This document shows, piece by piece, positions 7,396 to 8,483 of a DNA stretch of 64,000 nt. A program made the position numbers and the translations under genes. Each line of letters begins with the position of its first letter. The first letter of the stretch is position 1. The notes beneath the pieces are model-generated. The model saw only the letters and a program-made list of their open reading frames with translations, searched no databases and had not been told where the DNA came from. Source of the stretch: Escherichia coli (GTDB lineage: Bacteria > Pseudomonadota > Gammaproteobacteria > Enterobacterales > Enterobacteriaceae); the NCBI RefSeq assembly GCF_003334305.1, contig NZ_QOWS01000015.1; one strand, given 5' to 3'.

Positions 7396-7418
7396 AAATG
7401 GTATTTAAAATGCAAATT
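7396..7418 (+). promoter_or_regulatory. Candidate NsrR operator in the yeaR-yoaG promoter
   Basis: aaatggtatttaaaatgcaaatt resembles the AT-rich inverted-repeat NsrR site; yeaR-yoaG is known to be NsrR/NarL-regulated. Confidence 0.45.
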
Positions 7419-7484
7419 ATCAGGCGTACCCTGAAACGGCTGGAATAAACCGTTTTCAGCGCATTCCCCGAAGGAGGGAATAGG

Positions 7485-7844
7485 ATGCTGCAAATCCCAC
7501 AGAATTATATTCATACGCGCTCAACGCCTTTCTGGAATAAACAAACTGCGCCTGCCGGAATATTCGAACGTCATCTTGATAAAGGAACGCGCCCGGGGGT
7601 TTACCCACGCCTTTCCGTTATGCATGGGGCGGTCAAATATCTCGGCTACGCTGATGAACACAGTGCAGAGCCTGATCAGGTGATCCTTATCGAAGCGGGG
7701 CAGTTTGCGGTGTTCCCTCCAGAAAAGTGGCACAACATTGAAGCCATGACTGACGATACTTATTTCAACATTGACTTCTTCGTGGCTCCTGAAGTCCTGA
7801 TGGAAGGTGCGCAACAACGGAAAGTCATTCATAACGGGAAATGA
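7485..7844 (+). CDS. yeaR: DUF1971-family protein YeaR
   Basis: 119-aa ORF at the conserved position. Confidence 0.85.
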   Translation: MLQIPQNYIHTRSTPFWNKQTAPAGIFERHLDKGTRPGVYPRLSVMHGAVKYLGYADEHSAEPDQVILIEAGQFAVFPPEKWHNIEAMTDDTYFNIDFFVAPEVLMEGAQQRKVIHNGK

Positions 7845-7847
7845 ATC

Positions 7848-8036
7848 ATGGGCAAAGCAACGTATACCGTGACCGTCACCAATAACAGCAATGGCGTTTC
7901 TGTCGATTATGAAACAGAGACGCCGATGACTTTGCTGGTGCCAGAAGTGGCGGCTGAAGTGATAAAAGATTTGGTGAATACCGTGCGTTCTTATCCGGTG
8001 CGCCGTAAAACCCCGTCCTTCAGGGCGGGGATATAA
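7848..8036 (+). CDS. yoaG: Small protein YoaG; its 3' end may overlap the left end of the IS element
   Basis: 62-aa ORF starting 4 nt after the yeaR stop; the last codons run through the IS-type hairpin at 8011-8030. Confidence 0.7.
   Translation: MGKATYTVTVTNNSNGVSVDYETETPMTLLVPEVAAEVIKDLVNTVRSYPVRRKTPSFRAGI
8011..8030 (+). repeat. Candidate left-end subterminal hairpin of the IS (ccccgtcc-ttca-gggcgggg)
   Basis: 8-bp stem with one T.G pair and a 4-nt loop; near-identical to the hairpin at 9713-9732. Confidence 0.55.
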
Positions 8037-8051
8037 GGCGCGGTTTTCCAC

Positions 8052-8483
8052 CTAACCAGGTGTTTGCTGTTGTTCAATGTATTGGCGGATGACGGATATT
8101 GGCGCACCTCCGCAGCTACTGGCAAAATAGCCAGGACTCCACAAAACGCCTTTGTAGTAATACCTGACTGCAATATCTGGTCGATCTCGTCGCAGTAACC
8201 TACCCGATACGCCTTTGAGGCTGTTTACCAGACTGGATATCGCCAGTTTGGGAGGATAGTTAATTAACAAATGGACGTGATCTGGTTCGCCATCCATTTC
8301 AACAAGTTCAGCTTCAAAATCAGCACATACATTTGAAAAGTAAGTGCGTAGTTTTTCTGTCGCGTCATGGTCAAAAATCTGGAGTCGGTATCTGGTGACA
8401 AAGACCAGGTGAACATGCATCAGGAAAACACAATGCCTTCCACGCCGGATATCGGTTTCTTTTTTCACAGACCAAAGTATCAT
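8052..8483 (-). CDS. tnpA: IS200/IS605-family HUH Y1 transposase TnpA
   Basis: HVHLL (HuH) motif and C-terminal catalytic Tyr context (RQYIEQQ); 143 aa. Confidence 0.9.
   Translation of the reverse strand: MILWSVKKETDIRRGRHCVFLMHVHLVFVTRYRLQIFDHDATEKLRTYFSNVCADFEAELVEMDGEPDHVHLLINYPPKLAISSLVNSLKGVSGRLLRRDRPDIAVRYYYKGVLWSPGYFASSCGGAPISVIRQYIEQQQTPG

Follow-up and report, generated by a model that had tools for sequence, protein, structure and literature searches.

The stretch of Escherichia coli DNA analysed here (contig NZ_QOWS01000015.1; 64,000 nucleotides, hereafter the window) covers the rnd to chb region of the chromosome and matches the reverse complement of positions 2619986–2683985 of strain A7 (NCBI accession no. 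NZ_CP028767.1) with 0 mismatches over the entire 64 kb. It holds the yeaR–yoaG operon on the plus strand, interrupted by an IS609-type insertion sequence (IS) of the IS200/IS605 family whose transposase gene tnpA lies on the minus strand. The original prediction for this locus was that the operon converges on tnpA and is positioned to transcribe into the IS. The coordinates of the genes agree with both statements (Table 1), and the geometry is stronger than had been claimed, as the left end of the IS lies within the yoaG-derived open reading frame (ORF) itself.

An IS609-type element inside yoaG

The boundaries of the element were fixed by alignment of the window to the empty site of strain EC9682 and to copies located at ydcL, at a TetR-family gene, and at yfaY. 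The left end falls at position 7995, within codon 49/50 of yoaG, and no intergenic spacer separates yoaG from the IS. At the empty site TTAT is followed directly by GACACGG; at the occupied site TTAT is followed by the IS and then by GACACGG, without target duplication. Native YoaG ends in …VRSYDTENEHDVCGW (VRSY-DTENEHDVCGW), whereas the ORF in the window ends in …VRSYPVRRKTPSFRAGI (VRSY-PVRRKTPSFRAGI). The last 13 codons of this ORF (hereafter yoaG′) and its TAA stop (8034–8036), 42 nt in total, are left-end DNA of the IS, which has moved the 11 native C-terminal codons 1.75 kb downstream. The assumption of an intact yoaG separate from the IS is hence to be abandoned. As the left end makes up the last 42 nt of the yoaG′ ORF, every full-length yeaR–yoaG′ transcript already enters the IS. 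The left end also precedes tnpA on the plus strand, and is not, as had been supposed, reached by read-through only after tnpA. RefSeq labels the yoaG′ product only as a DUF1869 protein (WP_000513743.1); as a practical correction, yoaG in carrier strains should be read as a 3′-truncated fusion. The native yoaG–yeaQ spacer contains a GC-rich hairpin (TGGCGCA-atttc-TGCGCCA; 9793–9824, plus strand) followed by an A run rather than a T run, which is not a canonical terminator on either strand. The uninterrupted yeaR–yoaG operon may thus have no intrinsic terminator before yeaQ.

Upstream of the insertion, the locus resembles that of K-12 and CFT073, sharing with them the promoter, both regulator sites (NarL and NsrR) and an identical YeaR protein. 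Unlike the K-12/CFT073 operon, yoaG lacks its last 11 codons and the operon is split from yeaQ by the IS. The palindrome originally described as NsrR-like corresponds letter for letter to the yeaR 11-1-11 site given in Table 4 of the CFT073 NsrR study (PMC5320621), and a degenerate palindrome search of the window returned it as the only match at ≤1 mismatch. There was one other match, at 3 mismatches, while shuffled sequences average 0.64 matches at ≤3 mismatches. This weak palindrome (TATATGCACTTTAAATGCATATG; 48017–48039, plus strand), located in the astC–xthA intergenic region, is at chance level relative to the shuffles. The NarL 7-2-7 site at the yeaR promoter is centred at −43.5 according to the NarL cryo-electron microscopy paper (PMC10853779), and we placed the yeaR transcription start near 7439 on the basis of this centre. 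The NsrR operator overlaps both the NarL site and the inferred −35 element. The core promoter is the same in IS carriers and in the empty-site strain. In CFT073, nitrate induces yeaR 160-fold and yoaG 168-fold (PMC5320621). The yeaR NsrR site is reported to be a false negative of chromatin immunoprecipitation sequencing in CFT073 (PMC5320621), and NsrR binding and nitric oxide (NO)-dependent derepression at the promoter in the window would be expected by extrapolation from the K-12 and CFT073 literature. The gene c2201 was induced 142-fold in CFT073 (PMC5320621); its location is not established, and it was not counted as evidence of read-through.

The IS itself is a typical member of its family. 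Its TnpA matches the IS200/IS605 family transposase profile NF033573 of NCBIfam (142.8 bits against a cutoff of 55), and the ORF shows an HVH motif and a C-terminal Tyr. The original prediction overlooked tnpB, which lies on the plus strand, so that read-through would be sense to it. TnpB matches NF040570 (RNA-guided TnpB family; 370.6 bits) and the ISDra2 TnpB structures (PDB 8EXA/8BF8; E = 2.4e-53); RuvC-type D/E/D residues were seen in the ORF by eye, without alignment to the solved catalytic residues. The annotated tnpB start is a GTG at 8491, and the ATG at 8551 has AGGAG 6 nt upstream. Copies annotated as IS609 in O157:H7 are 97–98% identical to the element in the window. All 13 copies compared (13/13) are exactly 1748 bp long, with pairwise differences of 3–46 nt, and TTAT was found 5′ of the left end at 8/8 insertion sites read, among them the seven of the orientation count below. 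The element is without terminal inverted repeats. Its right end consists of hairpin arms (9713–9720 and 9725–9732) and a 10-nt linker that closes in the cleavage tetranucleotide TCAA (9739–9742), and its left-end hairpin folds as DNA at −7.5 kcal/mol (z = −2.9). The placement of TTAT before the left end and of TCAA at the other terminus identifies the plus strand as the top strand of the IS. This strand has positive GC skew, which fits the preference of the IS200/IS605 family for the lagging-strand template. The AAAA at 8007–8010, just 5′ of the inner left-end hairpin, is placed like the guide tetranucleotide of IS608, and would presumably pair with TTAT as AAAG does with TTAC in IS608. In sum, the element resembles the IS608/ISDra2 models in its Y1 HUH TnpA and TnpB, its subterminal imperfect hairpin at the left end, and its insertion 3′ of a fixed tetranucleotide. 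Nothing essential separates it from IS609, although the copy in the window and some copies at the gltX site carry two right-end stem substitutions.

Between tnpA and tnpB, TTGACC (8484–8489, plus strand) and its mirror GGTCAA (8533–8538) flank ATTTAAAT. The 67-bp region is nearly symmetric (TTGACC, 18 nt, ATTTAAAT, 17 nt, GGTCAA), and this symmetry suggests overlapping, weak divergent promoters. A standard scan of the control region gave no promoter match, and a relaxed scan gave 7-of-12 matches only. A predicted hairpin over the tnpA ribosome-binding site was no better than shuffled controls (z = −0.6). No Rfam match was found within the IS at the gathering threshold. At E ≤ 1, the only match was a sub-threshold RAGATH-18 (9626–9669, plus strand; 29.5 bits against a gathering threshold of 44.9; E = 0.0075), which falls at the 3′-end of tnpB, the place expected for a guide-RNA scaffold. 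The sole Rfam match at the gathering threshold in the window is the small RNA ES036 (CssrF), far from the IS (56765–56807, minus strand; 42.9 bits).

Table 1. Features of the interrupted yeaR–yoaG locus, with positions in the window.
Feature	Position	Strand	Basis or remark
leuE	6674–7312	+	
NarL 7-2-7 activator site TAACCAATAAATGGTA	7388–7403	+	Identical to published site
NsrR 11-1-11 operator AAATGGTATTTAAAATGCAAATT	7396–7418 (about −43 to −21)	+	Identical to published yeaR site
Inferred core promoter: −35 TTTAAA 7404–7409, −10 TACCCT 7427–7432, start about 7439	7404–7439	+	Arithmetic from NarL centre
yeaR, DUF1971 protein, 119 aa	7485–7844	+	ORF; WP_000939317.1 in strain A7 and in RefSeq annotation of the empty-site strain
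yoaG′ fusion ORF, 62 aa	7848–8036	+	Native codons 1–49, then 13 IS-encoded codons (PVRRKTPSFRAGI) and TAA
TTAT target tetranucleotide, adjoining IS left end	7991–7994	+	Alignments
IS609-type IS200/IS605-family element, 1748 bp	7995–9742	+ (top strand)	Alignment with empty site and other copies
Left-end compound hairpin with flanking tracts	8000–8047	+	RNA and DNA folds
Weak second hairpin CACCT-AACC-AGGTG with T-rich tail	8049–8075	+	Terminator scan, energy; overlaps tnpA stop codon
tnpA, Y1 (HUH) transposase, 143 aa, intact in window	8052–8483	−	NCBIfam profile, ORF
tnpA/tnpB divergent control region	8484–8550	both	Sequence; promoter scans
tnpB, RNA-guided endonuclease	8551–9699 from ATG (382 aa) or 8491–9699 from GTG (402 aa)	+	
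IS right end	9708–9742	+	Copy alignments
Displaced native yoaG 3′-end, 11 codons (DTENEHDVCGW) and stop	9743–9778	+	Empty-site alignment, translation
yeaQ	9926–10174	+	
First canonical terminator past yeaQ, 10-bp stem and T run	10188–10213	+	

Terminator-like structures and translation at the left end

Whether transcripts of the operon cross tnpA depends on what the left end does to them. The plus-strand RNA from 7985 to 8075 folds (centroid) into two structures, with z = −2.5. Hairpin A (8000–8041; about −26 kcal/mol, range −25.8 to −27.3) is a compound structure with an outer stem GCGCC/GGCGC (8000–8004 with 8037–8041) and an 8-bp inner stem CCCCGTCC/GGGCGGGG (8011–8018 with 8023–8030), separated by a 6 × 6 internal loop. 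The flanking tracts are the AAAA noted above and, on the other side, a GG-TTTT whose T tract lies at 8044–8047; in the RNA, hairpin A is thus followed by GGUUUUCC (G-UUUU-CC), with only four U. Hairpin B (CACCU-AACC-AGGUG, 8049–8062) is weak, at −4.4 kcal/mol, and is followed by the U-rich UUUGCUGUUGUU. On the minus strand, the inner hairpin is followed directly by UUUUAC, and this is likely the terminator of tnpA. The left-end structure is kept in all copies compared. The original prediction that no convincing plus-strand terminator separates the operon from tnpA holds for canonical hairpin-plus-U-run terminators, none of which was found between yoaG′ and tnpA, the first being the one beyond yeaQ. 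It does not hold to the extent that the compound hairpin with GGUUUUCC and the weak hairpin B exist.

The left-end hairpin of IS200 is described as a bidirectional terminator against impinging transcription (PMC4513863); in the window, the left-end hairpin similarly lies between an A tract and a U tract, and it stands at the point where host transcription enters. If the left end were likewise an efficient intrinsic terminator on the plus strand, transcripts would end at about 8048–8066, overlapping tnpA in its 3′ untranslated region and terminator but not in its coding sequence, and there would be no meaningful antisense transcription. The stability of hairpin A with its G-UUUU-CC, the U-rich tail of hairpin B, the conservation of the structure in every copy, and the IS200 precedent all speak for such a terminator. 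We nevertheless regard it as unlikely. There are only four U, set off from the strong inner stem by the internal loop, and the consensus terminator scan lists hairpin B only, having missed hairpin A. Recognition of the left end by the transposase suffices to account for the conservation, and the yoaG′ stop codon lies inside the structure, where ribosomes repress termination. The comparison with IS200 also has its limits. The IS200 tnpA points away from the left end and the terminator prevents its sense activation, whereas tnpA in the window is inverted, and host transcription entering the element would run antisense to tnpA and in the sense direction of tnpB. Unlike in IS200, the U tract on the plus strand is short and does not adjoin the main stem, and the structure lies within a translated ORF.

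The position of ribosomes bears directly on this point. In E. coli, translating ribosomes almost fully repress terminators that follow a stop codon within a few bp or that stand near the end of a coding region (PMC4824070). At the IS left end, hairpin A contains the yoaG′ stop codon and hairpin B begins 13 nt past this codon; by the distances in that study, both structures are too close to the stop codon to avoid interference from ribosomes. As ribosomes repress terminators at such distances, termination at the left end would be partial at best during translation of yoaG′, and as the structures straddle or closely follow the stop codon, read-through over tnpA is plausible.

Polymerase that passes the left end would then enter a long untranslated region. 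Untranslated antisense RNA is commonly terminated by Rho, a factor known to hold down antisense transcription in E. coli. Rho could terminate the transcript antisense to tnpA, with the RNA covering the 3′ part of tnpA and never reaching tnpB. The plus-strand RNA is untranslated for about 455–515 nt between the yoaG′ stop and tnpB, and its C/G ratio is 1.25–1.35 over 8094–8250 and up to 1.5 near 8388–8483, as this explanation would have it. A C/G profile combined with a search for regularly spaced C, however, showed no enrichment of rut-like windows downstream of the left end (0.10 against a background of 0.15–0.20), and no strong C-rich, G-poor tract was found there. The sequence gives no clear indication for or against a role of Rho past the left end; we consider termination by Rho within tnpA rather doubtful, though less so than efficient termination at the left end.

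The explanation that we favour as a whole, by a modest measure of confidence, combines a left end bypassed owing to ribosomes, induced read-through antisense to tnpA, and little effect on transposition. The yeaR promoter (PyeaR), NarL-activated and NsrR-repressed, is unchanged by the insertion, and polymerase starting from it always transcribes the IS left end. Hairpin A with its four U, together with the weak hairpin B, would be akin to the IS200 left-end terminator that blocks impinging transcription, and ribosomes finishing yoaG′ would suppress these structures, which straddle or closely follow the stop codon. Upon induction by nitrate or NO, a substantial fraction of transcripts would continue antisense across tnpA, unless Rho acts; those getting through would read tnpB, the guide-RNA region and yeaQ in the sense direction. 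The already weakly expressed tnpA would be damped, either through interference by convergent transcription or through duplex RNA. On its own, the passage of a sizeable induced fraction of plus-strand transcripts beyond 8066 appears slightly the more probable outcome.

Several observations weigh against this explanation, besides the general action of Rho on untranslated antisense RNA. In a crude hairpin/U-tract score, hairpin A is no worse than the obvious yeaQ terminator; the score, in the style of d'Aubenton-Carafa with modern energies, is uncalibrated and gives a negative value for the yeaQ terminator itself, and is of use for relative comparison only. Because hairpin A is stable (about −26 kcal/mol) and scores like the yeaQ terminator, efficient termination at the left end is possible, and termination near 8048–8051 could be efficient whenever ribosome and polymerase are uncoupled. 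There may also be little tnpA mRNA to regulate. A search of a literature library found no transcript data for carriers of the yoaG::IS allele; it also returned no paper naming both yoaG and IS605, and no study of the junction or of IS609 regulation.

Other insertion sites, age and decay of the copy

Seven distinct insertion sites were read for the orientation of the host gene. At six of the seven (yoaG, ydcL, the TetR-family gene, yfaY, gltX and the ybcM region), the first annotated host gene before the left end runs in the direction of the IS top strand; in the ybcM region, about 900 bp lie between the end of this gene and the left end. The exception is a DUF3251 gene. A host gene directed into the left end is ordinary geometry for an IS609-type element. 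Where the IS sits at ydcL or gltX, its TTAT target forms the end of the T tract that belongs to the intrinsic terminator of the host gene (e.g., GCGCCATCgttaGATGGCGCTTTTTAT, then the left end), and this host terminator shields the IS; terminator tails often provide the TTAT. The yfaY site is in part comparable to the yoaG site, with the host stop codon at nt 12–14 of the left end. The yoaG site is set apart only by its intragenic position and its very inducible upstream promoter.

Of 5426 complete E. coli genomes, 1100 have the yoaG::IS junction, O104:H4 among them; by inheritance, about one fifth of sequenced E. coli now carry the insertion. Copies at the yoaG site differ from one another by 3–26 of 1748 nt, while copies at different sites differ by 14–46 nt; the yoaG insertion is considered old because of this divergence among its own copies. 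In strain YZB902, which has the same insertion, tnpA contains an internal stop. In O104:H4, an A to G change at position 8054 turns the TAG stop of tnpA into CAG, and the tnpA frame extends through the left end into an ORF (7521..8051) antisense to yoaG and yeaR. CAG likewise takes the place of this stop codon in several other copies, and PGAP labels copies with CAG as 'missing C-terminus'.

The right end has also changed. Every copy at the yoaG site has two right-end stem substitutions (CCTCGTCA against the canonical CCACGTCC), which in the window are T9715 and A9720 in place of A and C. The canonical right end folds as DNA at −7.7 kcal/mol, and the variant in the window loses the hairpin. 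The variant and a one-substitution intermediate occur in some copies at the gltX–yfeD site as well. In view of these gltX-site copies, the substitutions are not taken as proof that the copy is immobile. Going by sequence, the variant may be inactive, may belong to a still-mobile sublineage, or may have been spread by gene conversion. The copy in the window is old and decaying, with a destabilised right end, and little consequence of read-through for transposition is expected for this reason.

These data bear on a functional coupling of stress and transposition, by which nitrosative or nitrate stress would measurably change TnpA level, left-end accessibility, or transposition. The geometry and a strongly inducible promoter are in place for it, and the plus strand is at once the non-template strand for PyeaR and the top strand on which TnpA acts. 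Set against this are the co-orientation that is usual for the element (6/7 sites), the internal stop or lost stop codon of tnpA in some carriers of the same insertion, the destabilised right-end hairpin, and the persistence of the insertion at one site in 1100 genomes. We judge such coupling to be very improbable.

Implications for tnpB and for host transcription of IS ends

As with art200 of IS200 and RNA-OUT of IS10, transposase expression would be lowered by an RNA able to pair with the transposase mRNA. Art200 and RNA-OUT are short and IS-encoded, have their own promoters, and target the 5′ untranslated region and start codon, whereas the RNA in the window would be a long read-through product of a host promoter, entering from the 3′-end of tnpA.

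In the donor-joint (retention) model of TnpB, the guide RNA targets the donor joint (10.1101/2023.03.14.532601). The locus is consistent with this kind of targeting, as tnpB appears intact and the flank GACACGG…, preceded by TTAT in the empty allele, is the predicted target. By analogy, the first 16–20 nt from 9743 would form the guide segment GACACGGAAAACGAAC of the TnpB guide RNA. TTAT followed by GACACGGAAAACGAAC is the uninterrupted yoaG allele, carried by about 80% of E. coli. A far-reaching extension of the favoured explanation is that, with the left-end terminator bypassed, PyeaR is the main promoter of the plus-strand genes of the IS. Induction would then silence tnpA by antisense transcription and switch on tnpB and the guide RNA, and carriers would possess an RNA-guided nuclease, inducible by stress, that cuts wild-type yoaG DNA entering the cell or arising by reversion. 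This we hold to be improbable, if marginally less so than stress-coupled transposition.

The locus adds one more example of something already known, host transcription that impinges on the end of an IS200/IS605 element, and is not a new kind of system. As seen now, it is an annotated IS copy beside a known promoter, with a putative regulatory effect. If read-through occurs, its RNA covers the whole of tnpA in antisense, and tnpB and the guide-RNA 3′ region in sense, and the locus is a natural case of a NarL/NsrR stress promoter driving transcription through an IS200/IS605 element. Such a read-through allele would be a probe of the interplay between host transcription, ribosome position and IS-end hairpins, and of host control of TnpB.

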